DNA of 64,000 nt, taken from NCBI GenBank assembly GCA_963752335.1, contig CAVVXW010000003.1:183187-247186 (forward strand), written 5' to 3'. Below, piece by piece: positions 24,599-63,670 of the stretch. Origin of the DNA: an uncultured Acidimicrobiia bacterium. GTDB lineage: Bacteria; Actinomycetota; Acidimicrobiia; IMCC26256; JAENVU01. The position numbers and the translations under genes are program-made. The notes beneath the pieces are model-generated. The model worked only from the letters and a program-made list of their open reading frames with translations. It ran no database searches and was not told where the DNA came from. Position 1 is the stretch's first letter. Each line of letters opens with the position of its first letter.

Positions 24599-24608
24599 GC
24601 GGGACGCG

Positions 24609-25637: not shown

Positions 25638-25670
25638 TGAGACCCGAATGCTCGGCGAAGGGCCGGTGAG

Positions 25671-26154: not shown

Positions 26155-26220
26155 CGCCGCGCGTGGCCCACTCGAGGAGCACGACGTCTCCCGTTCCGCG
26201 GCGGAGCGGAGGCACACCGG

Positions 26221-26257: not shown

Positions 26258-26272
26258 GACAGCGACGCAATC

Positions 26273-26788: not shown

Positions 26789-26789
26789 C

Positions 26790-27089
26790 GTGATCCTCAA
26801 CCAGTTCCTCGTGCTCGCGGCGATCCTCTTCTGCATCGGCGTCTACGGCGTGCTCGTCCGGCGCAACGGCGTGCTCGTGCTCATGAGCGTCGAGCTGATG
26901 CTGAACGCGGTGAACATCAACCTGGTCGCGTTCTCGGCCTATCTGCGCCAGACCGTGGGCGAGGTGTTCGCGCTGTTCGTCATCACGATCGCCGCCGCCG
27001 AGGTGGGCGTTGGTCTCGCCATCGTCCTGCTGATCTACCGCAACCTGCACAGCCCTGATCTCGACCGCGTCGAACAGCTGAAGGGGTAG
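26790..27089 (+). CDS. nuoK: NADH-quinone oxidoreductase subunit K (operon 2)
   Basis: ORF 26790..27089, intact at 99 aa. Motifs [17 protein letters not shown] and [19 protein letters not shown]. Confidence 0.92.
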
Positions 27090-27099
27090 GGAAGAGCTC

Positions 27100-29166
27100 G
27101 TGCTCGACTACGCGTGGATCATCCCGGCCATCCCGGTCGTGTCGTTCCTGGCGATCCTGTTCTTCGGGAAGAGGATGCCGAGGGGCGGATCCGAGATCGG
27201 CATCGTCGCGGTCGGCTCGACGTTCGTCCTCTCCTGCATCACCGCGGTGCAGTGGTTCGTCCGCGTCGAGGACGCGTCGGGCGGTGCCGCGGCGGCGGTG
27301 CGCGCGTTCGGCAAGGGTCTGATGCTGCGCGCCGGCGAGGAGGCCGTCGTCCGACCGGTCGTGCACACCGTCACCTGGTGGCGCAGCGGCTCGCTCGAGT
27401 TCAGCGTCGGCACCCGCATCGACGGGCTCGCGGTGATGATGCTCTTCGTCGTCACGTTGATCTCGCTGCTCGTGCACATCTACTCCACCGCGTACATGCA
27501 CGACGATGTGCGCTACACGTACTTCTACGCGGCGCTCAGCCTGTTCACGGCGTCGATGCTCACCCTGGTCGTCGCGTCGAACACGCTCGAGCTGCTCGTC
27601 GGCTGGGAGCTCGTCGGGCTCTGCTCGTTCATGCTGATCGGCCACTGGTGGGAGGAGCAGGAGAACAGCAACGCCGCGTTGAAGGCCTTCCTCACCACCC
27701 GCACCGGTGACATCGGCCTGATGATCGGCGTGATCGTCACCTTCTTCGCGGCCGATCAGAGCTTCGACATCGGGCGGATCAACACCGCGGCCCTGGCCGG
27801 GCTGAACGGCCACACCATCTGGGTCGTCGGGGCCGCGTGCCTGCTGATCGGGATCATCGGCAAGAGCGGTCAGTTCCCGCTCCACACCTGGCTGCCGGAC
27901 GCGATGGCCGGACCAACGCCGGTCTCCGCGCTCATCCACGCCGCGACCATGGTCGTCGCGGGGGTGTACCTCGGCGCCCGGGTGTACGGCGTCTTCTGGC
28001 AGGGCTTCTCGATCCAGGCCGGCGGCGTGAACGCCATGGCGCTCATCGGCGGTGTGACGATCATCATCGGTGCCGCGCTGGCCTTCGTGCAGGACGACAT
28101 CAAGAAGGTCCTCGCGTACTCCACGATCAGTCAGCTCGGCTACATGGTCATGGGGCTCGGTGTCGGCGCCTGGGTCGGCGCGGTGTTCCACCTCTTCACC
28201 CACGCCTTCTTCAAGGCGCTGCTCTTCCTCGGCGCCGGATCCATCAGCCACTCGGGATCGCACCACAGCTTCGACATGAAGAAGGACATGGGCGGCCTGC
28301 GCAAGCACATGCCGATCACGTTCTGGACCTTCATCATCGGCTCGCTCGCGCTCGCGGGCGTCGTACCCCTTGCGGGGTTCTGGTCCAAGGACGAGATCCT
28401 CGCCACCGCAGGCCAGGGCGGGTACGAGGTCTTCATGGTCATCGGCGTCGCCGGCGCCGTGCTCACCGCTGCCTACATGACCCGGTGCGTGTACCTCACG
28501 TTCTTCGGCGAGTACCGCGGTCACGGCCATCCGCACGAGTCGCCCAGGGCGATCACCGGGCCGCTCGTGGTGCTCGCCGGGCTGAGCGTCGTCGCCGGCC
28601 TCGCCAACGCGGCACCCATCGGCGTCGAGAAGTTCAAGGACTACGTCGAGCCGCGGATCGCGTTCCCCCCGGTGCACACGCCGAGCTTCGACTACCTGCT
28701 CGCCGGGCTCTCGGTCGGCGTCGTGCTCGCCGCGATCGGCTTCACGCTCTTCTTCTGGCTGGACCGCAAGGAGCTGCGCTCACTCAAGGGTCTGACGGAG
28801 CGGTCGGGCACGGCCAAGGCCGGCCACACCTTCCTCGTCAACAAGTACTACCTCGACCATCTGTACGAGAACGTGATCGTCGCGGGCATCAAGGGTCCGG
28901 TCGCCCGGGCCATGTACTGGGTGAACATGCACGTGATCGACGGGGTCGTGAACGGGGTCGGCCGGGGCACCACGGTGCTCGGTCGAGCGGTGTACCGCTT
29001 CGTGGACCAGGACACGGTCGACGGCGCGGTGAATGGGCTCGCGCGGGAGACGGACCAGGCCGGTGGCCTGCTCCGACCCCTGCAGTCGGGTCGGGTGCAG
29101 CGTTACGCGCTGTTCCTGTTCGGTTCCGTCGGGGTCATTGCCCTCGCGATCGCCATCTTCGGTTAG
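27100..29166 (+). CDS. nuoL: NADH-quinone oxidoreductase subunit L (operon 2)
   Basis: ORF 27100..29166. Motifs GWELVGLCSFMLIGHWW and [27 protein letters not shown]. Confidence 0.92.
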   Translation: MLDYAWIIPAIPVVSFLAILFFGKRMPRGGSEIGIVAVGSTFVLSCITAVQWFVRVEDASGGAAAAVRAFGKGLMLRAGEEAVVRPVVHTVTWWRSGSLEFSVGTRIDGLAVMMLFVVTLISLLVHIYSTAYMHDDVRYTYFYAALSLFTASMLTLVVASNTLELLVGWELVGLCSFMLIGHWWEEQENSNAALKAFLTTRTGDIGLMIGVIVTFFAADQSFDIGRINTAALAGLNGHTIWVVGAACLLIGIIGKSGQFPLHTWLPDAMAGPTPVSALIHAATMVVAGVYLGARVYGVFWQGFSIQAGGVNAMALIGGVTIIIGAALAFVQDDIKKVLAYSTISQLGYMVMGLGVGAWVGAVFHLFTHAFFKALLFLGAGSISHSGSHHSFDMKKDMGGLRKHMPITFWTFIIGSLALAGVVPLAGFWSKDEILATAGQGGYEVFMVIGVAGAVLTAAYMTRCVYLTFFGEYRGHGHPHESPRAITGPLVVLAGLSVVAGLANAAPIGVEKFKDYVEPRIAFPPVHTPSFDYLLAGLSVGVVLAAIGFTLFFWLDRKELRSLKGLTERSGTAKAGHTFLVNKYYLDHLYENVIVAGIKGPVARAMYWVNMHVIDGVVNGVGRGTTVLGRAVYRFVDQDTVDGAVNGLARETDQAGGLLRPLQSGRVQRYALFLFGSVGVIALAIAIFG

Positions 29167-29179
29167 GGGAACACGAAAG

Positions 29180-30700
29180 ATGAACTGGTTCCACGATTGG
29201 GGTCTGACGCTGGCGATCTTCGTGCCGGCCGTCGGTCTGGGCTTGGTGCTGCTCGTGCCGAAGGCCGAGGAGAACACCGCGAAGGTCGTCGCGCTGCTCA
29301 CGAGCCTCGTGACGTTGGCGGTCGGTGTCGGCATCCTCGCCGACTTCGACTACGGCCGCGCCGGGAAGCTGCAGTTCGGCGTCAACGAGAAGTGGATCGA
29401 CGTCATCAGCGCGCGCTACCACCTGGGGCTCGACGGCATCTCGCTCCCGCTGCTGATCCTGTCGATGCTGATGACAGTGCTGTGCATCGTCTACTCGTGG
29501 AACCACTTCCCCGAGCCGCACAACCCGAAGGCGTTCCTGGCGCTGATCCTGGTGCTCGAGGTCGGCATGAACGGCACGTTCCTCGCCCAGGACCTGATCC
29601 TCTTCTTCATCTTCTTCGAGATCGTCCTGCTCCCGATGTTCTTCATGATCGGCGTCTGGGGAGGGCCCAACCGGGAGTACGCGTCGATCAAGTTCTTCCT
29701 CTTCACGCTGTTCGGCTCCGCGCTGATGCTGCTGAGCTTCCTGGCCCTGTTCTTCCTCCAGGGTTCGTTCCAGATCCCCGTGCTCGCGCACATGGGCGAC
29801 GGCAACCTCGCGGAGACCACGCGTCTGCTGATCTTCGGCGGCCTGTTCCTCGGTTTCGCGATCAAGGTCCCGATGTTCCCGTTCCACACCTGGCTCCCCG
29901 ATGCCCACACCGAGGCGCCGACCGTCGGTTCGGTGCTCCTGGCGGCCATCCTCCTGAAGCTCGGGACGTACGGCTTCATCCGCATCGCGCTGCCCACGTT
30001 GCCGCACGCGGCGCAGGCGTGGGCGCCGTGGATCGGCGCGCTCGCGGTGATCGGCATCATCTACGGCGCGCTGTGCTGCCTCGCCCAGACCGACATGAAG
30101 CGGCTGATCGCGTTCTCGTCGGTGGCGCACATGGGGTTCGTGATGCTCGCCATCGCGTCGCTCACCACGTTCGGCCTCAACGCCGCGGTGTTCGGGATGG
30201 TGGCGCACGGCTTGATCACCGGCATGCTCTTCTTCATCGCCGGTTCCATGCAGCACACCTACGGAACCCGGCAGATGAGCCGCCTCGGCGGCCTGCTCAA
30301 ACAGGCGCCCAAGATGGGCTGGATCCTCGGCTTCTGCGCGATGGCCTCACTCGGGCTTCCCGGTCTCGCCGGCTTCTGGGGTGAGTTCCCGGCGGTGCTG
30401 TCTGCGTACAACCCCGGTGGTGACCTGTCTGCCCCGCTCTTCCGCACGTTCATGGTCATCGCCGCGGTCGGCACGGTCCTGGCCGCGGGATACCTGCTGT
30501 GGATGTACCAACGAGTGGCGTTCGGCGAGCCGAAGGCCGAGTTCGCGGACGCGCACATCCACGACGTGAGCACGATCGAGTGGATCGCGTGGACACCGCT
30601 GCTCCTGCTCATCGTGGTGCTCGGCGTGTACCCGGACACCGTCTTCTCGCTGAGCAACGACGCGGTGACCCACATCGCCCGGGCGTTCAAGGTCGGGTGA
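29180..30700 (+). CDS. nuoM: NADH-quinone oxidoreductase subunit M (operon 2)
   Basis: Frame of ORF 29033..30700 trimmed to ATG 29180. Motifs FFIFFEIVLLPMFFMI and PFHTWLPDAHTEAPTVGSVLLAAILLKLG. Confidence 0.92.
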   Translation: MNWFHDWGLTLAIFVPAVGLGLVLLVPKAEENTAKVVALLTSLVTLAVGVGILADFDYGRAGKLQFGVNEKWIDVISARYHLGLDGISLPLLILSMLMTVLCIVYSWNHFPEPHNPKAFLALILVLEVGMNGTFLAQDLILFFIFFEIVLLPMFFMIGVWGGPNREYASIKFFLFTLFGSALMLLSFLALFFLQGSFQIPVLAHMGDGNLAETTRLLIFGGLFLGFAIKVPMFPFHTWLPDAHTEAPTVGSVLLAAILLKLGTYGFIRIALPTLPHAAQAWAPWIGALAVIGIIYGALCCLAQTDMKRLIAFSSVAHMGFVMLAIASLTTFGLNAAVFGMVAHGLITGMLFFIAGSMQHTYGTRQMSRLGGLLKQAPKMGWILGFCAMASLGLPGLAGFWGEFPAVLSAYNPGGDLSAPLFRTFMVIAAVGTVLAAGYLLWMYQRVAFGEPKAEFADAHIHDVSTIEWIAWTPLLLLIVVLGVYPDTVFSLSNDAVTHIARAFKVG

Positions 30701-30704
30701 CATC

Positions 30705-32167
30705 GTGAACCCCGGTTGGGACTTCCATGCGATCGCCCCGATCATCATCGTGTCGGCGACGATCGTCGTGGTGCTGATCGCCGACTTCTTCTTCGAGTAC
30801 CGCGGCCGGTTCCAGACCCAACAGCTCGCGACCTTCGGTGTGCTCGCGGCGATGATCCCGATCATCTCTCTCGCGGTCGACGGAGGGACGCGCGATGTTC
30901 GGAGGCGGATTCGTCGTCGATCCGTACTCGCTGGTGTTCCAGGGGTTCTTCCTCGCGGCGGCGTACGTCTCGATGCTGCTCTCGGTCGACTACATCGGCG
31001 ACGGCGACTACTACCAGGGCGAGTTCTACGTGCTGCTGCTCACGTCGCTGCTCGGCATGATGATCATGGCCAGCGCGCGGGACCTCGTCTCGATCTTCGT
31101 CGCGCTGGAGACGATCTCGATCCCGACGTTCGTGCTGGCCGGCTGGCGCAAGCACGATCCGAAGTCGAACGAAGCCGCGATCAAGTACTACCTCATCGGC
31201 GTCCTCTCGTCGGCGGTGATGCTCTACGGCATGTCGCTCGTGTTCGGGCTCACCGGATCCACGCTGTTGACCGACATCGCCCACAAGGTGGGCCGGATCG
31301 ACGAGCCGCTGCTGCTCGTGGCCGGCTTCCTGACGATCGTCGGGTTCGCCTTCAAGGTGAGCGCCGTGCCGTTCCACTTCTGGGCCCCGGACACGTACGA
31401 GGGGGCGCCCACTCCGGTGACCGCGTTCCTCTCCGTCGCATCCAAGGCCGGTGGATTCGTGGCGCTGCTCTCGGTCGTGGTCTTCGGCTTCTTCCCGAAC
31501 GCCGACATGTGGCAACCCGCGCTGTGGGTGCTCGCGGCCGCGTCGATGATCCTCGGCAACCTCGTCGCGCTGCGCCAGACCAACGTGATCCGCATGCTGG
31601 CCTACTCGTCGATCGCCCAGGGCGGGTTCATCCTCGTGCCGTTCGCAGTGGCGCCCGACGGCAACGCCCTCACCTCCTCGATCGAGGCCGTCGTCGTCTA
31701 CATCCTCATCTACGGCGCCATGAACCTCGGCGCGTTCGCGGTCGTCATCGCGCTCGCCCGGCGGACGCGCAGCGCCGAGATCTCCAGCTTCGCCGGCCTC
31801 GGGCAGTACGCGCCGGTCATGGCGCTGATGATGTCGATGTTCCTGTTCTCGCTCGCCGGTGTCCCGCCGTTCGCGGGGTGGTTCGCCAAGTTCACGATGT
31901 TCCGCGCCGCGCTCGACGCGAACACGCCGGGCGCCACGGTGCTCGGTGCGATCGCGGCGGTCAGCTCGGTGATCGCGTTCTTCTACTACGTGCGGGTCGC
32001 AGCGCGAGATCTGGTTCCACCCGACCGGTGACGGCGCCGACACTGCCCCCATCGCCACCCCCACTGCGCTCAACGCGGCGGTGGTGCTGTGCGCGGCCGT
32101 CGTGCTCGTCGTGGGCGTGTATCCGCAGCTGTTCGCCCGATTGGGCGAGCTCGCCGCCGGCGGCTGA
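30705..32167 (+). pseudogene. nuoN: NADH-quinone oxidoreductase subunit N (operon 2), two frame disruptions as assembled
   Basis: The gene lies in three consecutive frames. (1) GTG 30705 to about 30893: VNPGWDFHAIAPIIIVSATIVVVLIADFF...AVDGGTRD. (2) 30895 to about 32001: MFGGGFVVDPYSLV...FHFWAPDTYEGAPTPVTAF...FFYYVRV. (3) About 32003 to TGA 32165-32167: REIWFHPTGDGADTAPIATPTALNAAVVLCAAVVLVVGVYPQLFARLGELAAGG. Confidence 0.85.
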
Positions 32168-44276: not shown

Positions 44277-44329
44277 GACGAGGACAACTCCGTGAAAGAG
44301 GGTCTGGAGGGCCTTGCTACTCTACGCCC

Positions 44330-44413
44330 GGGTCCGTACCCGAGAGGCCAAAGGGAACTGGCTGTAAACCAGTTGCGCAAGCTACGGGGGTTCGAATCCC
44401 TCCGGGCCCACCA
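44330..44413 (+). tRNA. tRNA-Tyr (anticodon GTA), long variable arm, CCA encoded
   Basis: Hand-folded. Acceptor GGGTCCG/CGGGCCC, anticodon stem ACTGG/CCAGT with loop CTGTAAA, T-loop GGTTCGAATCC, 3' ACCA. Confidence 0.9.
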
Positions 44414-44475
44414 CCCCGTCCCGCTGAGTTCGACCGCTTCGGCAGTCGAGGGACGACTCTCGATCCCGACTCGGG

Positions 44476-44970
44476 TCAGATCATCCTCTGCATCACCACG
44501 ACGTCGAGCCAGCGGCCGAGCTTGCGACCAACCTCGTGCTCGGTGCCCACGATCTCGAACCCGCAGCGCCGGTGCAGCGAGATCGACGCCCCGTGACCGC
44601 CCACGATCCTCGCGATCACGGAGTGGTAGCCGTAGGTCTGGGCCAGCCGGAGCAGCTCGGCCAGGATCTGGTGACCGACGCCGGTGCCCCGTTGGTCGGT
44701 CCGGACGTACACCGAGTCCTCGACCGTCGTCCGGTACGCAGGCCGTTCCTTGTACGGCGAGAGGGAGCCGAATCCGATGACCGCGCCGGTCTCGTCGACG
44801 GCGACCACGGCCGGGTGGCCGCCGCTGTGCGCCGCGATCCAGGCTTGTTGGTCCTCGAGGCTCCGGGGGACGAGATCGAAGGTGACGGTCGACCCGGCGA
44901 CCTCGACGTTGTAGATCGCGAGGAGGGCATCCGCGTCGGCGAGGGTGGCGGAGCGAAGGCTGGTCGGCAC
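44476..44970 (-). CDS. GNAT N-acetyltransferase, phosphinothricin-acetyltransferase-like
   Basis: ORF 44476..45039. Motifs VYVRTDQRGTGVGHQILAELL and HRRCGFEIVG. The start was moved to GTG 44970 because the ORF start at 45039 abuts tRNA-Thr; the start remains uncertain. Confidence 0.75.
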   Translation of the reverse strand: MPTSLRSATLADADALLAIYNVEVAGSTVTFDLVPRSLEDQQAWIAAHSGGHPAVVAVDETGAVIGFGSLSPYKERPAYRTTVEDSVYVRTDQRGTGVGHQILAELLRLAQTYGYHSVIARIVGGHGASISLHRRCGFEIVGTEHEVGRKLGRWLDVVVMQRMI

Positions 44971-45042
44971 GACCCGGACGGTATCGGACCACGCCCGGGT
45001 TGCTAACCTCTCCGGGTTCGGTCCGGATCGGGCCGGCACGAC

Positions 45043-45115
45043 GCCCCCTTAGCTCAGTCGGCAGAGCACTTCCATGGTAAGGAAGGGGTCTACGGTTCAA
45101 GTCCGTAAGGGGGCT
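45043..45115 (+). tRNA. tRNA-Thr (anticodon GGT)
   Basis: Hand-folded. Acceptor GCCCCCT/AGGGGGC, D-arm GCTCAGTCGGCAGAGC, anticodon stem CTTCC/GGAAG with loop ATGGTAA, T-arm TACGGTTCAAGTCCGTA. Confidence 0.9.
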
Positions 45116-45183
45116 CCGACGCGGTGTCGGGGTCGGTGGCCTCGGCGACGTGTGGACCGCGGTCCAGCCCTGGTGCCGCACCC

Positions 45184-45257
45184 GGCGGGATAGCTCAGCT
45201 GGTCAGAGCGCACGGCTCATAATCGTGAGGTCGAGGGTTCGATCCCCTCTCCCGCTA
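45184..45257 (+). tRNA. tRNA-Met (anticodon CAT), elongator type
   Basis: Hand-folded. Acceptor GGCGGGA/TCCCGCT, D-arm GCTCAGCTGGTCAGAGC, anticodon loop CTCATAA, T-arm GAGGGTTCGATCCCCTC. The anticodon stem lacks the three consecutive G-C pairs of initiator tRNA. Confidence 0.88.
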
Positions 45258-45335
45258 CTCGAAGACGACGACTCGGCGGAGGTCGGGGCTCACGGATCCC
45301 CGGGGATACCAGACACTTCCGCGATCGTGCCGCCC

Positions 45336-45442
45336 CGAGCACGAAGCACCGGCGGAGTGCGAGCAGCCTCGGAGCGTCCCGACCGGGCGCTCGCAGGTAC
45401 CCTGCGAGCGAGCGAAGAGGCCGAGAAGACGGAGCAACGGAG
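45336..45442 (+). promoter_or_regulatory. structured leader element (family copy) upstream of rpmG
   Basis: GAGCACGAAGCACCGGCGGAGTGCGAGCAGCCTCGGAGCGTCCCG, then a 10-bp hairpin CGCTCGCAGG-TAC-CCTGCGAGCG (45388-45410), then AGCGAAGAGGC..GACGGAGCAA and the ATG. Long identical blocks are shared with the rplK leader. Confidence 0.55.
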
Positions 45443-45604
45443 ATGGCGTCGGACAAGCGGCTCAAGGTGACCCTTGCCTGCGAGGAGTGCAAGCGCAGGA
45501 ACTACATCACCAAGAAGAACAAGAACAACGACCGCGAGCGGATCGAGATGAAGAAATACTGCCGCTTCGACCGTCGGCACACGCTCCACAAGGAGACCCG
45601 TTGA
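45443..45604 (+). CDS. rpmG: 50S ribosomal protein L33
   Basis: Own translation (too short for the ORF track): [53 protein letters not shown], 53 aa, with CxxC...C zinc-ribbon-like motifs and a GGAG SD. Confidence 0.9.
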
Positions 45605-45671
45605 ACGGTGGCGTTCGCCGCCGGTTCGCTCCGCCGGCTCGCCCGGTCGCCCGCCCGACCGCCCGGCCGAC

Positions 45672-45700
45672 GTAACCTCGCCCCGCTCCCACAGGTCTGA
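45672..45700 (+). promoter_or_regulatory. candidate ECF-type autoregulatory promoter (GTAACC-17 nt-GTCTGA)
   Basis: Resembles the ECF consensus GGAAC-N16/17-(C)GTCT as I recall it. It lies 25 nt upstream of the sigma-factor ATG. Confidence 0.3.
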
Positions 45701-45724
45701 TCCCCGCTTCGGAACGGAGCATCC

Positions 45725-46288
45725 ATGGTGGACGAGACCGAGCTGATCCGCGCTGCCCAGGCCGGCGACCGCACCGCGTTCGACGAGCTGGTCCGGGCGA
45801 CCTACACCGACCTCTTCACCCTGGCCGTCCGATTGACCGGGAACGAGGAGGACGCACGCGACGTGGTCCAGGACGCTTACCTGCGGGCGTGGAAGGGCAT
45901 CGGCGGATTCCGTGGAGACGCTGCGCTCTCGACCTGGCTCTACCGCATCACCGCGAACTGTGCGTCCACGCACCTCTCGCGGCGGCGTCGCACGCGCACC
46001 GAGCCCTTCGCCCCCGGCTTCGACCCCGCCGAGCTCCGTTCGGACCTCCAACCCGAGTCGATGACCGAGTCGACGCTCGACCTCGAGCGCATCGGGCGCG
46101 CGGTCGACGAGCTCCCGCCGAAGCTGCGGGCGGTGGTCGTGCTCCGGGACGTGTACGGCCTCGCTCACGAAGCGATCGCCGAGGAGCTCGGGATCTCCGT
46201 GTCCGCGGCCAAGGTCCGATTGCACCGCGCTCGGAAGCGTCTGCGCGACGAAGTGTTCGAGGAGAAGGGAGCGGCCCGTGCGATATGA
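45725..46288 (+). CDS. ECF (sigma-70 family, group 4) RNA polymerase sigma factor
   Basis: ORF 45725..46288. Region 2 DVVQDAYLRAWKGIGGFRGDAALSTWLYRITAN; region 4 LPPKLRAVVVLRDVYGLAHEAIAEELGISVSAAKVRLHRARKRL. Confidence 0.88.
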   Translation: MVDETELIRAAQAGDRTAFDELVRATYTDLFTLAVRLTGNEEDARDVVQDAYLRAWKGIGGFRGDAALSTWLYRITANCASTHLSRRRRTRTEPFAPGFDPAELRSDLQPESMTESTLDLERIGRAVDELPPKLRAVVVLRDVYGLAHEAIAEELGISVSAAKVRLHRARKRLRDEVFEEKGAARAI

Positions 46289-46640
46289 GGACGTCGCGGA
46301 CGTGTTGCCGGGCCTGGTCGACGGCACCGCCGAGGTCGACGAGCGCACCCGTGCATTCATCGAATCCGATCTGCGCTGCCAGGCCGAGCTCGCCCGGTAC
46401 CGCCGGCTGCTCCGAGGGTTGGGGACGCTGCGCACCACCTACCTCGAGCCCGCGCCCGGTGGGCTGGCCCAGACGCTGAACGCGCTCGCCGCGGAAGGCG
46501 AGCGCCGCATGGCGCGTTCGATCCTGACCGGCAGGCGCATGGTGGTGGCCGGTGCTGCGCTCGGTGGCGCGGCGGTCGCCGGCGCCGCGACCGCGGCGGT
46601 GTTCGCGGCCCGCTCGCGCCGCCGCCTCCTCGCCGGCTGA
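46278..46640 (+). CDS. putative anti-sigma factor (single C-terminal TM helix)
   Basis: ORF 46278..46640 overlaps the sigma gene by 11 nt. It is a short protein with a helical N-terminal domain and the hydrophobic segment MVVAGAALGGAAVAGAATAAVFAA. The call rests on context, and no zinc motif was seen. Confidence 0.55.
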   Translation: MRYEDVADVLPGLVDGTAEVDERTRAFIESDLRCQAELARYRRLLRGLGTLRTTYLEPAPGGLAQTLNALAAEGERRMARSILTGRRMVVAGAALGGAAVAGAATAAVFAARSRRRLLAG

Positions 46641-46805
46641 ACCCCGCACTCGCGGCACGAGGCCGACCGCGGTTCCCGTGTCCACGCCACGACCGGACAC
46701 CGCGACGTCACCGACGTGGTTCCCCGCGTCCGAGGGGCCAGATCCGGGCATGAGATGCCGGAGGCGCCTGGGCTAGGCTCGGCCGTCCGGCCCCCGCGCG
46801 CCCGG

Positions 46806-46880
46806 AGGGCAGTAGCTCGAATTTGGCAGAGCTCCGGTCTCCAAAACCGGCGGTTGGGGGTTCGAGTCCCTCCTGCCCTG
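46806..46880 (+). tRNA. tRNA-Trp (anticodon CCA)
   Basis: Hand-folded. Acceptor AGGGCAG/CTGCCCT, anticodon stem CCGGT/ACCGG with loop CTCCAAA, T-arm GGGGGTTCGAGTCCCTC. Confidence 0.9.
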
Positions 46881-46926
46881 CTCCGAAGACGACCAACCCG
46901 GGACCCGTCCCAGGAAGGCCCCAGCG

Positions 46927-47211
46927 GTGACACAACAGAACCGACAGATGCGGCGGATGGCGCAGAAGCAGGGCGCCGACAAGCCGCGCGCGCCCGAACG
47001 CCGGCCGACGAATCCCACACGTACCGAGCGCACCGGACCCCGTCAGTTCTTCGCCGAGGTCCAGGGTGAGCTGCGCAAGGTCGCCTGGCCGACTCGCAGT
47101 GAGGTCATCAACTCCACCATCATCGTGTTGATCGCGGTGGTCGTCATGACCTCACTGATCTTCGGCGCCGACTACCTCTTCGCCAAGGGCGTCCTCTTCC
47201 TCTACGACTGA
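46927..47211 (+). CDS. secE: preprotein translocase subunit SecE
   Basis: ORF 46927..47211 (GTG start). [34 protein letters not shown] is the SecE TM and hinge signature. It holds the canonical position between tRNA-Trp and nusG. Confidence 0.9.
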
Positions 47212-47215
47212 GCCA

Positions 47216-48034
47216 ATGACTGACGACGACTTCACGGATCCCGCCGCGCCCGCAGCCGACGACGACGCTGGTTCGCGTGCCGACATCCCCGGTTCCGATC
47301 CGGACCCCGACCCCGACCCGTCACCCGGTCCGGACGCGCCCGCGGACGCGTCCCGCGACTCGATCGAGTCCACCGAGGACGAGACGGTGGTGGTGGAGGA
47401 GGTCGTGCTCCCCGCCGATGCGGAGATGGTCGAGGTCGATGCGGACGAGGACGACGACGAACCCGTCGTCGCCGAGCCGAGCCCGTACGACCGCCCCGGC
47501 CGGTGGTACGTGGTGCACACCTACGCGGGCTACGAGAACAAGGTGAAGCAGAACCTGGCCAGCCGGGTCCGCTCGATGAATGTCGAGGAGCGGATCTTCG
47601 AGGTCGTCATCCCGATGGAAGACGTCATCGAGTTCAAGAACGGCCGCAAGGTCGTGGTCCAGAAGAAGGTCTGGCCGGGGTATCTCCTGATCCGCATGGG
47701 CCTCGACGACGACTCGTGGTACGTCGTGCGCAACACCCCCGGTGTCACCGGATTCGTGGGCAGTGGCGCGAAGCCGACCCCGCTGACCCGGCGTGAGGTC
47801 GAGGAGTGGCTGGGCAAGGGTGAGACACCCGAGGGCGTGCAGGAGAAGAAGGTCCGGCCGCGGCTCGAGTACGAGATCAGCGAACAGGTTCGGGTCACCT
47901 CGGGTCCGTTCGCCGACTTCAACGGTGCGATCAGCGAGATCGACGTCGACCGCTCGAAGCTCAAGGTGCTCGTCAACATCTTCGGCCGCGAGACCCCGGT
48001 CGAGCTCGAGTTCGGCCAGGTGGCCAAGCTGTAG
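47216..48034 (+). CDS. nusG: transcription termination/antitermination factor NusG, with a long acidic N-terminal extension
   Basis: ORF 47216..48034. NGN domain [14 protein letters not shown]; KOW domain [19 protein letters not shown]. Confidence 0.93.
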
Positions 48035-48153
48035 CAAGCGTCACGGGCGCCCGGGTGTTCCCGGGGGTCCGGGGACCGGGTCGTCCGCACGATGGTCGGA
48101 CCGAGCCCGAACCAAGTCAGATGTCCCGAGACGCGGCCGCGTTCGTCGGGACT

Positions 48154-48260
48154 CGAGCCCGAAGCGTGAGCGGAGGGCGAGCAGCCTCGTAGCGTCCCGG
48201 AGGGCGGCCGCAGGTACCCTGCGGCCGAAGCGAAGAGGCAGAAGAGACGGAGCAATCAAG
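48154..48260 (+). promoter_or_regulatory. structured leader element (family copy) upstream of rplK
   Basis: CGAGCCCGAAGCGTGAGCGGAGGGCGAGCAGCCTCGTAGCGTCCCG, then a 9-bp hairpin GGCCGCAGG-TAC-CCTGCGGCC (48206-48226), then AAGCGAAGAGGC..GACGGAGCAA and the ATG. Confidence 0.55.
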
Positions 48261-48686
48261 ATGGCGAAGAAGAAGCTCGCCGCGGTGGTGAAGATCCAGA
48301 TCCAGGCCGGGGCCGCGACGCCCGCGCCGCCGGTCGGGACGGCACTCGGCCCGCACGGCATCAACATCATGGACTTCTGCAAGGCGTACAACGCCGCGAC
48401 GGAGAACCAGCGGGGTCAGATCATCCCCGTCGACATCTCGATCTACGAGGACCGGACGTTCACCTTCGTCACCAAGACGCCGCCCACGCCGTTCCTGCTC
48501 CGCCAGGCGGCCGGCATCGAGAAGGGCAGCGGCGTCACGCCCCGCGAGAAGGCCGGCAAGGTGACCCGCGCTCAGGTCCAGGCCATCGCCGAGCAGAAGA
48601 TGCCCGACCTCAACGCGATCGACCTCGAAGGTGCCATGGCCCAGGTCGAGGGAACCGCCCGGTCGATGGGCATCGACGTCGTCTGA
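48261..48686 (+). CDS. rplK: 50S ribosomal protein L11
   Basis: Frame of ORF 47793..48686 trimmed to ATG 48261. Begins [44 protein letters not shown]. Confidence 0.93.
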
Positions 48687-48819
48687 AGGACCGACGACCC
48701 GAAGCAGTACTGCACCACCTGCCCGTGGAGGACCTCGCCGCGGGAGCCCAGGAACCCGGAGGGACCGTGACAATCGGCGTCGTAGCGGAGCGGAGACGCC
48801 ACCGAGCTCCGCACGACCC

Positions 48820-48866
48820 GAAGGCAGCGCCGGTATCCCGGCGCCGAGCAAGGAGCGACCGAGAAG
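48820..48866 (+). promoter_or_regulatory. partial leader element (hairpin plus GAGCAA/SD module) upstream of rplA
   Basis: A 7-bp hairpin GCGCCGG-TATC-CCGGCGC (48827-48844) is followed by CGAGCAAGGAGCGACCGAGAAG and the ATG. It has the same apex (GGTATCC) and the same downstream GAGCAA as the tuf unit. Confidence 0.45.
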
Positions 48867-49586
48867 ATGAAGCACGGCAAGAAGTACGCGGATGCCAGCA
48901 AGCGGTTCGACCGCGAGCGGCTGCACGAGCCGGCCGAGGCCATCGACCTGGTCAAGAACCTGGCGCCGGCCAAATTCGACGAGACGGTGGAGGCGGCGTT
49001 CCGTCTCGGCGTCGACCCCCGCAAGGCCGACCAGATGCTGCGGGGCACCGTGTCGCTGCCTCAGGGCACCGGCAAGAGCGTGCGGGTCGCGGTGTTCGCC
49101 AAGGGTGACGCTGCTCGCGCGGCCGAGGAGGCCGGCGCCGACATCGTCGGGGCCGAGGACCTCGTGACCCGGGTCGAGGGCGGCTTCATGGACTTCGACG
49201 TGGCGATCGCGACCCCGGACCTCATGGGCCAGGTGGGCAAGCTCGGGCGCTCGCTCGGTCCCCGCGGGCTGATGCCGAATCCCAAGACCGGCACCGTGAC
49301 CCCCGATGTCGCCAAGGCCGTGGGCGAGTTCAAGGCCGGCAAGGTCGAATACCGCACCGACCGGTACGGCAACGTCCATGTGCCGCTCGGCAAGGTCAGC
49401 TTCGGCGCGGACGCGCTGGTCGACAACTACGTCGCGGTGCACGACGAGCTGATGCGGGCCAAGCCCGCGTCGGCGAAGGGTCGCTACGTGAGGGGCATCA
49501 GCGTCTCGTCGACGATGGGCCCGGGTGTCCGGATCGATCCCGCGCGGAGCCGCCCCGAGGAGCACGCCGGCGGCGCGACCAGCTAG
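48867..49586 (+). CDS. rplA: 50S ribosomal protein L1
   Basis: ORF 48867..49586. Motifs [34 protein letters not shown] and [10 protein letters not shown]. Confidence 0.93.
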
Positions 49587-49745
49587 GGTCCTGCCCGGAA
49601 ACAGATCTTCTGCCGCAGACCTTCGGTCGCCCTCCGGGGCGGTAATGGGCTCCTGGCCCGCCGGACGAGGCGAACCTGACCGACCCCGCTCGGGTCCGTC
49701 GGCGTCGCATGCGGCCCCGGACCGAGTGAGAGGACGGAAGGACTC
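49587..49745 (+). promoter_or_regulatory. rplJ 5' leader (possible L10-type autoregulatory leader)
   Basis: A 159-nt spacer with short hairpins (CGCCC-TCCG-GGGCG and GACCC-CGCTC-GGGTC) in the position where L10(L12)4-binding leaders occur in other bacteria. No covariance-model search was possible. Confidence 0.3.
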
Positions 49746-50399
49746 GTGGCCAGACCCGAGAAGGTGGCGGTCGTCACCGAGATCCGCGAGCGGCTCGCCG
49801 ACGCCGACGCGACCGTGTTGACCGAGTACCGGGGTCTCAAGGTGAGCGAGCTCGCGACGCTGCGCGGCTCTCTGCGTCCGGCCGGCACGGACTTCAAGAT
49901 CTACAAGAACAGTCTCGCCCGGCGCGCGGTGGAGGAGGCCGGGCTCGGCGATCTCATCCCGTTGCTCCAGGGCCCGACCGCGATCGCGTTCGTCAGGGGC
50001 GACGCCGTCATCGCGGCCAAGGCGCTGCGGGACTTCGGCCGGACCAACCAGGCGCTGGTGGTCAAGGGAGGCCTGCTCGGCACCAAGGTTCTCGTCGCGT
50101 CCGATGTCGCCGCGCTCGCCGACATCGCCCCGCGCGACGAGCTCCTCGCCCGGCTGGCCGGGGGATTCCAGGCACCGATGGTCAAGGCGGCGGGCCTGTT
50201 CCAGGCGTTCACCCGGAACATGGCCTACGGCCTCAAGGCCCTGATCGACGAGCGGATCAGCGCCGGGGAACCAGCACCGGGACCCGAGGCCGAGCCGGCC
50301 GCGGAATCCGAGGCCGAGACCGACACCGAGTCCGACTCCGAGACGGCGGCCGAGACCGAGACCGACACCGAATCCGACGCTCCCGCGTCGGACGACTGA
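49746..50399 (+). CDS. rplJ: 50S ribosomal protein L10, with an acidic low-complexity C-terminal tail
   Basis: ORF 49746..50399 (GTG start). Motif LTEYRGLKVSELATLRGSLR. The tail reads EPAPGPEAEPAAESEAETDTESDSETAAETETDTESDAPASDD. Confidence 0.92.
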   Translation: MARPEKVAVVTEIRERLADADATVLTEYRGLKVSELATLRGSLRPAGTDFKIYKNSLARRAVEEAGLGDLIPLLQGPTAIAFVRGDAVIAAKALRDFGRTNQALVVKGGLLGTKVLVASDVAALADIAPRDELLARLAGGFQAPMVKAAGLFQAFTRNMAYGLKALIDERISAGEPAPGPEAEPAAESEAETDTESDSETAAETETDTESDAPASDD

Positions 50400-50426
50400 T
50401 CTGACCAAGAGAAAAGGGACACCGAA

Positions 50427-50816
50427 ATGGCGATGAGCACCGACGAGCTCCTGGACGTCTTCAAGAACATGACCGTCCTCGAGCTGAACGAGTTCCTCAA
50501 GGCGTTCGAGGACGAGTTCGGCGTGACCGCAGCCGCCCCCGTGGCGGTCGCAGCGGTCGGAGCCGCTCCGGCGGCCGGCGGCGAGGCAGCCGCAGCCGAG
50601 GAGAAGGACGAGTTCGACGTGGTCCTGGCCGCGGCCGGGGACAAGAAGATCCAGGTCATCAAGGAGGTCCGCGCGCTCACGAGCCTCGGGCTGAAGGAGG
50701 CCAAGGAGCTGGTCGACAACGCACCGAAGCCCGTGCTCGAGAAGGCGTCCAAGGAGGACGCCGAGAAGGCCAAGTCGGCGCTCGAAGGCGCCGGCGCCAC
50801 CGTCGAGCTCAAGTAA
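50427..50816 (+). CDS. rplL: 50S ribosomal protein L7/L12
   Basis: ORF 50427..50816. An Ala-rich hinge is followed by [24 protein letters not shown]...[15 protein letters not shown]. Confidence 0.95.
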
Positions 50817-50865
50817 TCCAGCACGACTTGCCAGGGGTTCTCGCCCCTTCGGGCAATCGAGATCC

Positions 50866-50901
50866 TTGACCTGCCGGGGGAGGATTTGTATCCTCCCCCG
50901 G
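50866..50901 (+). promoter_or_regulatory. candidate rpoB promoter (TTGACC-17 nt-TATCCT) overlapping a perfect 12-bp-stem palindrome
   Basis: TTGACC at 50866-50871 and TATCCT at 50889-50894. The inverted repeat CCGGGGGAGGAT-ttgt-ATCCTCCCCCGG spans 50874-50901. This is the rplL-rpoB spacer, where attenuators and promoters are known in other bacteria. Confidence 0.35.
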
Positions 50902-51067
50902 TCTGGCGGCACCCTCCGGGTGACCGCCTGGACTGGTGTGCTTGAAGACTCGTGCGCGCGGCGGTTATGATCCGCCGAGCCGTGTCGATCTGCCCGTTCC
51001 ACCCCTGGTTCTCCCTGGTGTCGGTTCGCGCGCGCCCGCACACGCCCTTCAACCTCGAGGAGTTGCG

Positions 51068-54606: not shown

Positions 54607-58782
<4,176 letters not shown>

Positions 58783-58847
58783 CCCGGACGCGGCGTTCCG
58801 ATCGGGGAGCTGCCCCGCTCGGGACGCCAGTTCCGGTCGAGAAGAGT

Positions 58848-58877
58848 TTGTCCGAAGGCCCGGCGAGCGCCTAGCCT
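58848..58877 (+). promoter_or_regulatory. candidate rpsL (str operon) promoter (TTGTCC-18 nt-TAGCCT)
   Basis: Hexamers found by eye in the 195-nt rpoC-rpsL spacer. The -10 fits TANNNT. Confidence 0.25.
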
Positions 58878-58977
58878 TCGACGGTTTGCGCGGTCGATCG
58901 GCCGCGCAGGCCGGTGTCGCCTCGCGGCGCCGACGTTCACGAGGGCCGTCTCGGGGCCCCCAACCAGCAGGAGAGCT

Positions 58978-59346
58978 GTGCCCACGATCGCCCAGCTGGT
59001 CCGCAAGGGCCGCGAGAGCAAGACGGACAAGTCGAAGACACCGGCGCTGAAGGGCTCGCCCCAGCGGCGTGGTGTCTGCACGCGCGTCTTCACCACCACC
59101 CCGAAGAAGCCGAACTCGGCGCTGCGGAAGGTGGCGAGGGTCCGGCTCACCACCGGCGTCGAGGTCACCGCGTACATTCCCGGCATCGGCCACAACCTCC
59201 AGGAACACTCGATCGTGCTCGTACGCGGCGGCCGGGTGAAGGACCTGCCGGGCGTCCGTTACAAGATCATCCGCGGCGCGCTCGACGCGAGCGGCGTCGC
59301 CAACCGCAAGCAGGCCCGTAGTCGCTACGGCGCCAAGAAGGGTTAG
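58978..59346 (+). CDS. rpsL: 30S ribosomal protein S12
   Basis: ORF 58978..59346 (GTG start). Begins [12 protein letters not shown] and contains [17 protein letters not shown]. Confidence 0.95.
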
Positions 59347-59348
59347 TC

Positions 59349-59819
59349 GTGCCTCGCAAGGGACCTGCCCCCCGGCGGGAGCTGCTGCCCGATCCCGTGC
59401 ACCGCTCGGTGGTCGTGACCCAGCTCGTCAACAAGGTGCTCCAGGAGGGCAAGCGGTCGACGGCCGAGCGGATCGTCTACGACGCGCTCACCGAGATCGA
59501 GCGCAAGACCGGCGGCGACCCGATCCCGACGTTGAAGCGAGCGGTCGAGAACGTCCGCCCCGTGCTCGAGGTGAAGTCGCGGCGTGTCGGTGGCGCCACC
59601 TATCAGGTCCCGGTCGAGGTCCGCCCGCGGCGGGCCACCACCCTGGCCATCCGTTGGTTGGTCGGGTACTCGCGTCAGCGGCGGGAGAAGTCGATGGCGG
59701 GGCGACTCGCCGCCGAGCTGATGGACGCGAGCAACGGGCTCGGTGCCGCGATCAAGCGCAAGGACGACCTGCAGAAGATGGCGGAATCGAACAAGGCGTT
59801 CGCGCACTACCGCTGGTGA
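59349..59819 (+). CDS. rpsG: 30S ribosomal protein S7
   Basis: ORF 59349..59819 (GTG start). Begins [16 protein letters not shown] and contains [16 protein letters not shown]. Confidence 0.95.
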
Positions 59820-59828
59820 TTGCTCCGG

Positions 59829-59950
59829 GTGTGGGTGCCCGACGCCGGCATCCGCCCAGTCGCTCGGTCATGCGCTCGCTGCGCTCGCGAGCTCGCTTGG
59901 TGGACGGATGCCGACGCCGGCCTTGGGCCGGACGCGACATCGCGGGCACC
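59829..59950 (+). promoter_or_regulatory. long nested-stem structure in the rpsG-fusA spacer
   Basis: GGTGCCCG (59834-59841) pairs with CGGGCACC (59943-59950). GGCATCCG (59847-59854) pairs with CGGATGCC (59905-59912). The central palindrome is GCTCGCGAGC (59883-59892). The direct repeat CCGACGCCGGC occurs twice. Confidence 0.4.
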
Positions 59951-59977
59951 TCGTAGGTAGAGGAAGAGAAGAAGGAC

Positions 59978-62077
<2,100 letters not shown>

Positions 62078-62124
62078 TCCGGCGCCCGGTCCCCCAGAGA
62101 TCAGTTGGTCGGCCACTTCGCGTG

Positions 62125-62469
62125 CCGAGCAACGAAGGCAACAACAAGACAGCACGATGCGGTCGGTGTGACCCGAGCCCGAAGCGAAGGCGGAGGGCGA
62201 GCCGCGGAGTGAGTGGCCGCGAGGCGGGTATCCCGCCGAGCAACGAAGGCAACAACAAGACAGCACGATGCGGTCGGTGTGACCCGAGCCCGAAGCGAAG
62301 GCGGAGGGCGAGCCGCGGAGTGAGTGGCCGCGAGGCGGGTATCCCGCCGAGCAACGAAGGCAACAACAAGACAGCACGATGCGGTCGGTGTGACCCGAGC
62401 CCGAAGCGAAGGCGGAGGGCGAGCCGCGGAGTGAGTGGCCGCGAGGCGGGTATCCCGCCGAGCAACGAA
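62125..62469. repeat. perfect tandem repeat, 3 x 111 bp plus 12 nt of a fourth copy (tuf leader)
   Basis: The units 62125-62235, 62236-62346 and 62347-62457 read identically when compared base by base. Unit sequence: ccgagcaacgaaggcaacaacaagacagcacgatgcggtcggtgtgacccgagcccgaagcgaaggcggagggcgagccgcggagtgagtggccgcgaggcgggtatcccg. Confidence 0.9.
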
Positions 62470-62482
62470 CGGAGCAAGAGGG

Positions 62483-63670
62483 ATGGCGAAGGAGAAGTTC
62501 GAGCGGACGAAGCCGCACCTGAACATCGGGACCATGGGTCACATCGACCATGGCAAGACCACGCTGACCGCGGCGATCACCCGGGTGCTGGCCGAGAAGA
62601 ACCCGAACGTCACGGCCACCGCGTTCGACATGATCGACAAGGCGCCGGAAGAGAAGGCGCGAGGGATCACGATCAACATCGCGCACGTCGAGTACGAGAC
62701 GGACAACCGTCACTACGCGCACGTCGACATGCCCGGCCACGCCGACTACATCAAGAACATGATCACCGGTGCGGCCCAGGTCGACGGTGCGATCCTCGTG
62801 GTGGCCGCCACCGACGGCCCGATGCCCCAGACTCGTGAGCACGTCCTGCTCGCCCGCCAGGTCGGTGTGCCGTCCATCGTGGTGGCCCTGAACAAGTGCG
62901 ACGCGGTCGAGGACGAGGAGCTGCTCGAGCTGGTCGAGATGGAGGTCCGGGAGCTGCTCAACGAGTACGAGTTCCCGGGCGACGACACCCCGGTGGTGCG
63001 GGTCTCCGCGCTCAAGGCGCTCGAGGGCGACGCAGCCGCCGCCGAGGGAATTGTCGAGTTGATGAACCAGGTCGACTCGTTCATCCCCGAGCCCGTCCGT
63101 GAGCTCGACAAGCCCTTCATGATGGCGATCGAGGACGTGTTCACCATCACGGGTCGCGGGACCGTCGTCACCGGGAAGGTCGAGCAGGGTGTGCTCCACA
63201 CCGGCGACGAGATCGAGATCGTCGGCCTGCGCGACACGCAGAAGACCACCTGCACGGGCGTCGAGATGTTCCGCAAGATCCTCGACCAGGGGCAGGCGGG
63301 CGACAACATCGGTGCCCTGCTCCGCGGTACGAAGAAGGAGGAGGTCGAGCGCGGCCAGGTGCTCGCCAAGCCCGGTTCGATCACCCCGCACACCGACTTC
63401 GAGGCGCAGGTCTACGTGCTCACGAAGGAGGAGGGTGGTCGGCACACCCCGTTCTTCGCCAACTACCACCCGCAGTTCTACTTCCGCACCACCGACGTGA
63501 CGGGCACGATCAACCTGCCCGAAGGGACCGAGATGGTGATGCCGGGCGACAACACCGAGATGACGGTGCAGCTCCAGAAGCCCATCGCCATGGAAGAGGG
63601 TCTGCGGTTCGCCATTCGTGAAGGTGGTCGCACCGTCGGCGCCGGTCGCGTGACCAAGATCCTCAAGTAG
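62483..63670 (+). CDS. tuf: translation elongation factor Tu
   Basis: Frame of ORF 62435..63670 trimmed to ATG 62483 (GGAGCAAGAGGG SD). Begins [32 protein letters not shown]; also DMPGHADY and NKCD. Confidence 0.96.

Follow-up and report, generated by a model that had tools for sequence, protein, structure and literature searches.

A folded intergenic repeat, apparently specialised as an intercistronic leader, in a clade of uncultured Acidimicrobiia

Why should several genes of the translation apparatus in one bacterium be preceded by the same folded sequence? This question was raised by a 64,000-nucleotide stretch of DNA from an uncultured Acidimicrobiia bacterium (contig CAVVXW010000003.1; the whole stretch is hereafter called the window), for which an original prediction made from the sequence had described a leader element of about 110 nt, composed of four modules, upstream of rpmG, rplK and tuf and in part of rplA. 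The window has a G+C content of 68.9% and carries, in order, two nuo operons, the genes for tRNA-Tyr, tRNA-Thr and tRNA-Met, rpmG, an extracytoplasmic function (ECF) sigma/anti-sigma pair, tRNA-Trp, secE, nusG, rplK, rplA, rplJ, rplL, rpoB, rpoC, rpsL, rpsG, fusA, tuf and the start of rpsJ. We found the four modules in their predicted places upstream of rpmG, rplK and tuf. Comparison of the copies within the window and among related genomes suggests that the element belongs with structured intergenic repeats and has become specialised as an intercistronic leader that brings its own ribosome-binding site. The family appears to be specific to its lineage, and its copies come so far from a clade of uncultured Acidimicrobiia only.

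Seven copies and their common fold

The window carries seven copies of the element, all on the + strand: one each before rpmG, rplK, rplA and nuoJ, and three before tuf. The copy before rplK, on which the original prediction centred, occupies 48148–48260 in the spacer between nusG and rplK, and the rplK ATG follows at 48261. Its first helix, P1, spans 48157–48178, where GCCC (48157–48160) and GGGC (48175–48178) close a 14-nt loop. Its second, P3, spans 48205–48227 and reads CGGCCGCAGG-TAC-CCTGCGGCCG, or CGGCCGCAGG UAC CCUGCGGCCG as RNA, and the Shine-Dalgarno sequence (SD) GGAG lies at 48249–48252. The copy between tRNA-Met and rpmG (45330–45442, + strand, ATG at 45443) has P1 at 45339–45360, with GCAC (45339–45342), a 14-nt loop and GUGC (45357–45360), and a 10-bp P3 at 45388–45410, CGCTCGCAGG-TAC-CCTGCGAGCG, after which comes a purine tail with GGAG. 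The first module was thus correctly described as a 4-bp stem with a 14-nt loop that reads GCCC/GGGC before rplK and tuf and GCAC/GTGC before rpmG; its inner spacing, given as N8, is N6 (CGAGCNCGAAGC-N6-GGAGNGCGAGC). The second module, at 48177–48199 in the rplK copy, is indeed identical to that of rpmG at 22 of 23 positions, and the tail GGAGCAA stands 5 nt ahead of ATGGCG before rpmG, rplK and tuf.

The unit described before tuf, at 62125–62457, does contain the element, and is really part of an array. Three tandem copies fill 62124–62482 on the + strand of the fusA–tuf spacer (ATG at 62483), and Tandem Repeats Finder gives a 111-bp unit in 3.1 copies of 100% identity at 62124–62469. Every unit has P1 as GCCC/GGGC and P3 as GCGA-GGCGGG UAU CCCGCC-GAGC, with the P3 cores at 62223–62237, 62334–62348 and 62445–62459. 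The array could be either an amplification resembling a variable-number tandem repeat (VNTR) or an assembly artefact. An in-frame GTG at 62435 was considered as the start of an EF-Tu leader peptide or N-terminal extension and discarded as implausible. Before rplA, where a partial copy with the hairpin had been predicted, P3 is present (48827–48844, GCGCCGG UAUC CCGGCGC) and so is P1 (48776–48800, GGCGUC at 48776–48781, GUAGCGGAGCGGA, GACGCC at 48795–48800), so that this weaker copy (48769–48866, + strand, ATG at 48867) is more than a hairpin. The rplA-type arrangement recurs in a relative (L200, 13223–13321). The copy before nuoJ, absent from the original prediction, coincides with a repeat family designated D9 and lies at 26186–26278 on the + strand of the nuoI–nuoJ spacer, the GTG start being at 26275; its linker is GGAGCGAACGGCC and its tail GAGCAGACAGCGACGCAAUC, P1 is degraded, and P3 reads GGUGGG UAU CCCGUC at 26238–26252, with two G-U pairs.

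The likeness among these copies is far above chance. A single-query search with the rplK leader retrieved the rpmG leader at E=2e-10, and an nhmmer model made from just two rpmG leaders of other genomes found the window's tuf (E=1e-18), rplK (5e-5), rpmG (7e-5) and nuoJ (4e-4) copies. All five occurrences of exact CGAGCNCGAAGC in the window fall within element copies. With a covariance model, the rpmG copy scored 67.3 bits (E 1e-19) and the rplK copy 66.3 bits, but both are seeds of that model; the tuf copies scored 90–108 bits (62168–62263, 62279–62374 and 62390–62485), the nuoJ copy, which is not a seed, 33 bits (E 5e-8), and the rplA copy 17.5 bits (E 0.009).

The closest public relatives of the window are metagenome-assembled genomes (MAGs) of uncultured Acidimicrobiia, from which we retrieved about 570 kb of loci (numbered with an L) around nusG, rpmG, rpsL and nuoJ, in 20-kb stretches. 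A covariance-model search for further copies had been proposed in the original prediction, and our model, whose seeds include the rpmG and rplK copies, returned 35 copies (E<5e-4) in 26 loci of related Acidimicrobiia, which we aligned. A pattern scan of public genomes with the first module was too loose by comparison: it matched at least 119 stretches, nearly all by chance or in coding sequence, and the only true homologue among the matches listed was L003, from an Acidimicrobiia MAG. The same scan also matched a conserved coding motif of Gaiellales.

The consensus is a cassette of about 95–115 nt that runs from P1 through a linker, P3 and a CGCA-RCGA string to a purine tail with the SD. P1 is a short stem of variable sequence around a conserved purine loop, G(R)AGC-N2-6-GC(R)(S)A (G(R)AGC..GCGGA). 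The conserved purine linker, GAGYGARYG-NCC, holds its sole cytidines in the invariant CC at the foot of P3, and the unpaired parts of the element are purine-rich, C-poor and nearly U-free. P3 is a 10-bp GC-rich helix in nearly all copies, mostly with a UAY triloop closed by G-C, and its 3' foot stands about 18–33 nt ahead of the start codon; in one class, helix positions 7–8 form a tandem G-A/A-G mismatch (GCGA-GGCGGG...CCCGCC-GAGC). The strong ribosome-binding site, ACGGAGCAAU-N3-G-AUG, lies in the purine-rich tail, which is poor in C and U.

Both stems covary. In the 35-copy alignment, which was fitted to the covariance model, 92.6% of cells in paired positions hold standard pairs, compared with 75.1% in column shuffles, and 14 of the 17 pairs vary on both sides; sliding the 3' partners by 1–3 columns drops pairing to 32–52%. 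Because the alignment was model-fitted, we also list the stems directly, as P1 and P3 are visible in the raw sequences. Six P1 stems enclose one loop consensus: GCCC/GGGC, GCAC/GUGC, GCGCAC/GUGCGC, ACCC/GGGU, GGCGUC/GACGCC (rplA) and GUACC/GGUAC (L220); in more distant copies P1 is unclear or different. P3 occurs with at least six distinct stem sequences, its 5' arms including CGCUCGCAGG, CGGCCGCAGG, GCGGCGCAGG, GCGCCGCAGG, GCGGGCCGGG, GCGAGCCGGG and GCGAGGCGGG, all with a matching 3' arm, and the pair four from the loop is G-C 22 times and A-U ten times, with no unpaired cell. Wobble pairs in P1 and P3 are biased (G-U 7, A-C 1), which is weak evidence for folding of the sense strand.

The third module had been described as a hairpin with complementary, differing arms around a fixed apex, GGTAYCC. 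The arms behave as described, and the apex is fixed within the window; among relatives it is not, with loops GAT, TGC, TAA, TCT, GAA, CAAG and CGAG. In the orthologous tuf and rplK leaders of close relatives a hairpin is kept at the P3 position through compensatory changes, with unrelated loops (GAA, CAAG, CGAG, GAGA). Conservation thus lies in the hairpin and not in a hexamer. With compensatory pairs on the strand that is probably transcribed, the element has the marks of a structured cis-acting RNA, and the covariation of P1 and P3 across 35 copies in 26 loci agrees with the original proposal of a selected single-strand structure that is more than a shared promoter.

The proposal that the element is no named ribosomal-protein leader also held. 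Rfam 15 gave only tRNAs across the whole window at gathering scores, and permissive scans (E<=10) of 44300–51000 and 58700–62600 gave no match overlapping any copy. A catalogue of known and candidate ribosomal-protein leaders does not mention L33, L11 or tuf (PMC7247131).

Distribution and insertion among relatives

The interpretation offered in the original prediction is partly supported. In 33 of the 35 copies the element is in sense to the flanking genes, and each sense copy stands just upstream of a gene that is itself preceded by a same-strand gene or tRNA. The junctions are tRNA-Met/rpmG, nusG/rplK, rplK/rplA, rplJ/rplL (L190, L192), fusA/tuf, tRNA-Thr/tRNA-Met (L146, L154) and nuoI/nuoJ. 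The two antisense copies lie after rplL in L150 (4868–4940) and at 89–165 of L145, and in L190 and L192 the rplJ reading frame, at its 3' end, runs through the copy. With copies before nuoJ and tRNA-Met, two in antisense and one inside the rplJ frame, the element is not simply a translation-gene leader.

Presence or absence of the element among close relatives is clear at rpmG, rplK, tuf and nuoJ. Ten relatives have an RpmG identical to that of the window; only L200 and L201 carry the element before rpmG, and in the remaining ones tRNA-Met and rpmG are 28–80 nt apart. In many relatives just 20–40 nt or so separate nusG from rplK, and those whose RpsL is identical to the window's have 35–81 nt between fusA and tuf, with a P3-like hairpin alone. 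The nuoI–nuoJ junction is similar. In L222–L226 the two genes overlap as GTGA without a spacer, and the window, L221 (99% NuoJ identity) and L220 (87%) all have an insert of 118–160 nt between the nuoI TGA and a new nuoJ GTG; in L220, P1 survives with a new compensated stem and P3 has decayed. Since relatives without the element have spacers of about 0–80 nt at these junctions, co-transcription across them is probably ancestral.

Copies within one genome resemble each other more than they resemble their orthologues. Over its full length the window's rpmG copy is 80% identical to its rplK copy, compared with 62–65% to the orthologous L200 leaders, and the L200 rpmG leader is 85% identical to the tuf leader of its own genome. 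Copy number varies in the manner of a MIRU-type VNTR, with 3.1 x 111 bp before tuf in the window compared with a single copy in the closest relative (L003/L210), and two tandem copies in L124 and in L160. The single tuf copy of L003/L210 is flanked by a 13-nt direct repeat, GCCGA(C/G)CAACGAA, that could mediate slippage. An identical 23-nt P3 (GCGGCGCAGG-TAY-CCTGCGCCGC) is found in five different genomes and three gene contexts. Together, the pattern of presence and absence, the within-genome likeness, the tandem amplification and the splitting of nuoI from nuoJ show the element behaving as a duplicating insertion.

We found no copy-specific target-site duplication: flanks match at 5.41 of 9 positions within copies and at 5.42 of 9 between copies (permutation p=0.58), and the direct repeats in the flanks, GAGYGARCG and AGMGAGMGA, belong to the consensus. 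Among the called genes of the 20-kb relative stretches none has a transposase domain, and no REPIN-type inverted pairs were seen among the copies. One possibility is that copying proceeds by ectopic conversion or slippage between similar purine-rich ribosome-binding regions.

A working model and its rivals

We think it somewhat probable, on balance, that the element is a copied intercistronic leader RNA that gives the downstream gene a stable hairpin and a ribosome-binding site of its own; its mechanism we infer as follows. Duplication or ectopic conversion of the DNA would generate new copies, which would be kept almost solely in sense, mostly before translation genes in high demand (those for L33, L11, L1, L7/L12, EF-Tu and tRNA-Met). 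The cassette would act in a polycistronic transcript and make the downstream cistron autonomous: processing in the linker would turn P3 into a nuclease-resistant 5' boundary of the downstream mRNA, a cut at the linker CC would leave the hairpin nearly flush with the 5' end, and the tail would serve as an independent ribosome-binding site. Actinobacterial RNase E cleaves single-stranded RNA 5' of cytidines, with its sites concentrated in 5' untranslated regions and between genes on one strand (PMC10641625). The downstream gene would be expressed independently of the upstream gene and at a higher level; the junctions that would need such a rise are those where EF-Tu is to be made above EF-G, L7/L12 above L10, and L11 and L1 above NusG. 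The P1 loop and linker may additionally bind a common factor. A bolder version, in which the element is a self-propagating RNA-level expression cassette that re-programmes the downstream cistron and also places it under one shared trans-acting factor, strikes us as unlikely.

Several observations weigh against the leader model. Transcription of the copies is judged only from their position between same-strand genes and from the short or missing spacers of relatives. In silico, accessibility from the SD to the AUG was not above that of shuffled leaders, except at rplA. On this ground the idea that the element insulates the ribosome-binding site was rejected; the predicted long-range partners also shifted with the cut points. 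Taken singly, the copies have unexceptional folding energies (z from -1.0 to -2.3, and +0.5 for nuoJ); the case for structure rests on the comparison between copies and not on thermodynamics, and that comparison draws its counts from the model-fitted alignment. A further helix, P2 (CGCGG...CCGCG), was dropped because it runs into the base of the 10-bp P3, shows next to no covariation and contains numerous mismatches; we treat the stretch as a conserved single-stranded linker. The two antisense copies and the one in the rplJ frame show that some copies are in no position to serve as leaders. Enrichment at translation genes, though apparent, is no more than suggestive, because the loci were retrieved around nusG, rpmG, rpsL and nuoJ and are biased accordingly. 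Finally, the UAY loop hardly varies and whole P3 sequences recur exactly across genomes, which suggests sequence-specific recognition, something that a merely stable hairpin does not explain; the conserved P1 loop, linker and UAY loop hint at recognition by a protein or enzyme, whether a regulator or the copying machinery. Kissing of the P1 loop (GCUUGC) with the P3 loop (GCAAGC) was also considered and rejected, as it is found in L120 and L203 only and is not kept in L200, L205 or L209.

Much of the same evidence could be read as that of a selfish or neutral small intergenic repeat of the REP, MITE, ERIC or MIRU kind, which would spread as DNA, have its hairpins recognised in single-stranded form, play no regulatory role, and survive only where it is harmless, in sense and with its own ribosome-binding site. 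In favour of this, the element comes and goes among relatives with RpmG or RpsL identical to the window's, is more alike within genomes than between orthologues, forms tandem arrays in the window, L124 and L160, turns up in antisense and in the 3' end of the rplJ frame, has entered the nuoI/nuoJ overlap with its P3 decaying in L220, and shows one 23-nt P3 in five genomes and three contexts. We regard this account as possible though doubtful, for the orientation bias is strong (33 sense, two antisense), the spacing to the next start codon does not vary, conservation of the P1 loop and linker extends to relatives in which the surrounding spacer has diverged, and the copies show neither copy-specific target-site duplication nor REPIN-type pairs, with no transposase linked to them among the called genes of the relatives' stretches. 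A second account makes each copy a stringently controlled promoter, with the P3 apex and 3' arm (GG-TAYCCT-GCGCCGC) supplying the -10 element, the G at -14 and a GC-rich discriminator. The -10 option, already raised in the original prediction, deserved to be taken seriously because the lineage's conserved rpoB promoter, TTGACC-N17-(G)TATCCT (50866–50894 in the window), itself has its -10 embedded in a covarying inverted repeat (window, L152, L149, L125); in several relatives the rpoB site reads TATCCTGCG, the very string of class-A element copies, and class-A copies (TACCCT, TATCCT, TAACCT) precede start codons by 25–40 nt and tRNA-Met by about 25 nt. Against it, TAYCCT or TAACCT is present in no more than about a third of copies, and about two-thirds read TATCCC, TACCCC, GATCCC, TGCCCT or GATCTT, so that most lack the T at -7 or the A at -11, whereas the T at -7 is kept in all rpoB P1 promoters compared (12 loci) and in the rpsL promoters examined, and both kinds have a -35 box. 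No TTGACA-like hexamer lies 16–19 nt upstream of any copy, the -35 position being occupied, by eye, by a GAGCGA-type linker, and a consensus promoter scan found sites at rpoB only (50866–50894 and 50942–50971) and none at the elements. At one and the same site with near-identical flanks the class is swapped, TATCCC in L143 and TACCCT in L148 and L153, orthologous P3 loops read GAA, CAAG, CGAG or GAGA, and the covarying stems go unexplained, since a transcript starting at or after the 3' arm would contain no hairpin. We therefore rejected the apex as a -10 box for the family and hold the promoter account to be distinctly unlikely; the TAYCCT minority, including the window's rpmG and rplK copies, might have some promoter activity.

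The conserved P1 loop and linker would instead be the target of a single trans-acting regulator, protein or small molecule (for example (p)ppGpp), if the copies were shared operators of an RNA regulon. Their sequence is indeed kept while the stems vary, the same motif precedes the genes for L33, L11, L1, L7/L12 and EF-Tu, and in the rplK leaders of seven close relatives the loop and linker are nearly invariant while the adjoining spacer varies. We nevertheless give this account little credence, as there is no match to an Rfam riboswitch or ribosomal-protein leader, the same genes lack the element in many close relatives, which would be unexpected of an essential regulon, copies also precede nuoJ and tRNA-Met, P1 is unclear or different in distant copies, and no expression platform is evident, the SD not being sequestered in leader-only folds. 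That P3 is a very stable GC hairpin and always 3' of another gene would suit a partial terminator or attenuator without a U-tract that ends transcription of the upstream gene, another of the roles first suggested for the element. This idea found no positive support and is very improbable. P3 is followed by AGCGA, AACGA or GAGCA, with no U-run after any copy, and so is not an intrinsic terminator; a terminator scan finds no site at the copies. Its distance is fixed to the downstream start and variable to the upstream stop (about 145–170 nt for rplK and tuf), a separate hairpin stands directly after the nusG stop, and termination before tuf, rplK, rplL and nuoJ would starve essential genes for which no internal promoter is visible.

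Known systems, neighbouring spacers and meaning

How does the element compare with repeats and leaders already described? ERIC or IRU of enterobacteria and Correia or NEMIS of Neisseria are small structured intergenic repeats that are co-transcribed with genes; they share with our element a length of about 100–150 nt, dispersal in transcribed spacers and presence or absence between strains, their RNA hairpins can alter the processing or stability of neighbouring cistrons according to orientation, and some carry promoter-like hexamers. The element differs in lacking both long terminal inverted repeats and a copy-specific target duplication, in consisting of two short separate hairpins with purine linkers and not of one long imperfect palindrome, in ending in a ribosome-binding site at the downstream start codon, and in its strong bias to sense and to translation genes; no sequence relationship is expected. 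Mycobacterial MIRUs are intercistronic repeats defined by short frames that overlap the flanking stop and start codons. Like them, the element is actinobacterial, lies within operons, is co-oriented and forms tandem arrays of variable copy number. Unlike them, it shows no evident coupling frame (two of the three frames of the 111-bp tuf unit carry TGA, and the open one, ORF 62122–62838, neither shares the tuf frame nor begins at the fusA stop), is mostly single-copy and is defined by covarying hairpins.

REP hairpins stabilise mRNA, and REP/BIME sequences resemble the element in being short GC-rich palindromes of extragenic transcribed DNA, with classes that are reused across sites and stems that covary between classes. 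REPs are usually found 3' of genes, occur in either orientation and are often paired as inverted copies, whereas 33 of our 35 copies are in sense and just 5' of a start codon, and the cassette of about 100 nt has extra conserved parts. Ribosomal-protein leaders (for example L10, L1 and L20; autoregulatory rRNA mimics) likewise place a lineage-specific, covarying RNA structure directly before ribosomal-protein genes, but each serves one operon and one protein ligand. The element stands before at least five translation genes, a tRNA and nuoJ, is absent at the same genes in close relatives, moves between loci and has no Rfam match. Known 5' stabilisers, such as the ompA 5' stem-loop of E. coli and the strong-SD stabilisers of Bacillus, sit at the very 5' end of the primary transcript. 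The stable hairpin shortly upstream of a strong SD in highly expressed genes is shared with these and is the way of working that we propose; the element's hairpin lies inside an RNA that is probably polycistronic, and its foot would have to be cut by processing.

Other spacers of these operons are also structured. In the rplK–rplA spacer, 5' of the rplA copy, a motif at 48715–48768 (GGAGGACCUCGCC...GAGGGA) is kept ahead of rplA in many relatives and resembles an autoregulatory site for L1 binding; Rfam gave no match to it at E<=10. Directly after the nusG stop, at 48040–48080, a GC hairpin (CCCGGG UGUU CCCGGG), whose position is kept in relatives, adjoins a second one (GAGAC..GUCUC) and could be the real 3' structure of the secE–nusG unit. 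The 3' end of rplJ (50284–50371; 3210–3297 in L190) encodes a low-complexity acidic tail with 6-, 18- and 24-bp tandem repeats, and in L190 and L192 the leader-element copy is read through as part of this tail. The rplL–rpoB spacer has two promoter-like sites, TTGACC-N17-TATCCT (50866–50894) and TTGAAG-N18-TATGAT (50942–50971); the former is kept in about 12 related genomes, and its -10 lies within an 11-bp inverted repeat (CCGGGGGAGGA ... TCCTCCCCCGG) in which spacer and discriminator are complementary and which covaries in L152, L149 and L125. In the rpoC–rpsL spacer (58830–58977) a promoter-like TTTGTC-N18-TAGCCT (TTGAAT-N18-TAGCCT in relatives) is followed by a conserved leader before rpsL.

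The rpsG–fusA spacer (59820–59977) holds a long imperfect hairpin, ..GCCGGCAUCCGCCCAGUCGCUCGG..CGCUUGGUGGACGGAUGCCG.., that is conserved in all relatives examined and has a second copy between tuf and rpsJ in L211/L212 (14537–14680), where a structured spacer element has been copied to a new site. Just past the window end, the rpsJ–rplC spacer of 210–250 nt is conserved (L210 14783–15030, L211, L213, L214), with the blocks ..CACUAGUGUUCGCAAGCUCUC..CGACGUCCGUG..ACGGCACAACCGAACCAGCGCUCCGCCGGGA.., and may be an S10-operon leader; it shows no match to the leader element. An insert of about 115 nt in the rpsC–rplP spacer is present in L211 (19568–19681), L212 (19576–19689) and L213 (12431–12548) and absent in L210 and L214, and is a third presence/absence family of spacer insertions. 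Between rpmG and tRNA-Trp/secE, at 45725–46640, an ECF sigma gene is followed by a 120-aa open reading frame, a possible anti-sigma factor with no Pfam match; the arrangement is kept in most of the close relatives retrieved. The two nuo (NADH dehydrogenase I) sets stand in tandem at about 6000–21000 and 21700–32000, with paralogous stretches 70–77% identical (repeat families D5 and D10–D15).

What the element means depends on which of these readings holds. As a merely tolerated repeat it would serve well as a marker, given the variable copy number of the tuf array, and it would be, to our knowledge and with no literature search made for such repeats, the first REP/ERIC-like family described in Acidimicrobiia. 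Ribosomal-protein leaders are tied to one operon each; here one folded leader has been copied before at least five translation genes and into a respiratory operon, and it would show, in nature, how expression inside an operon is re-tuned when a ready-made RNA module is inserted. Should it prove self-propagating, it would be a bacterial counterpart of a translation regulon that is defined by a 5' motif and grows by transposition-like copying. If the conserved loop binds a factor, the copies would form a new post-transcriptional regulon in a widespread uncultured soil lineage, and if the hairpin sets a processed, protected 5' end, they would show how high-GC Actinomycetota may raise EF-Tu, L7/L12 and L11 above their operon partners without internal promoters.

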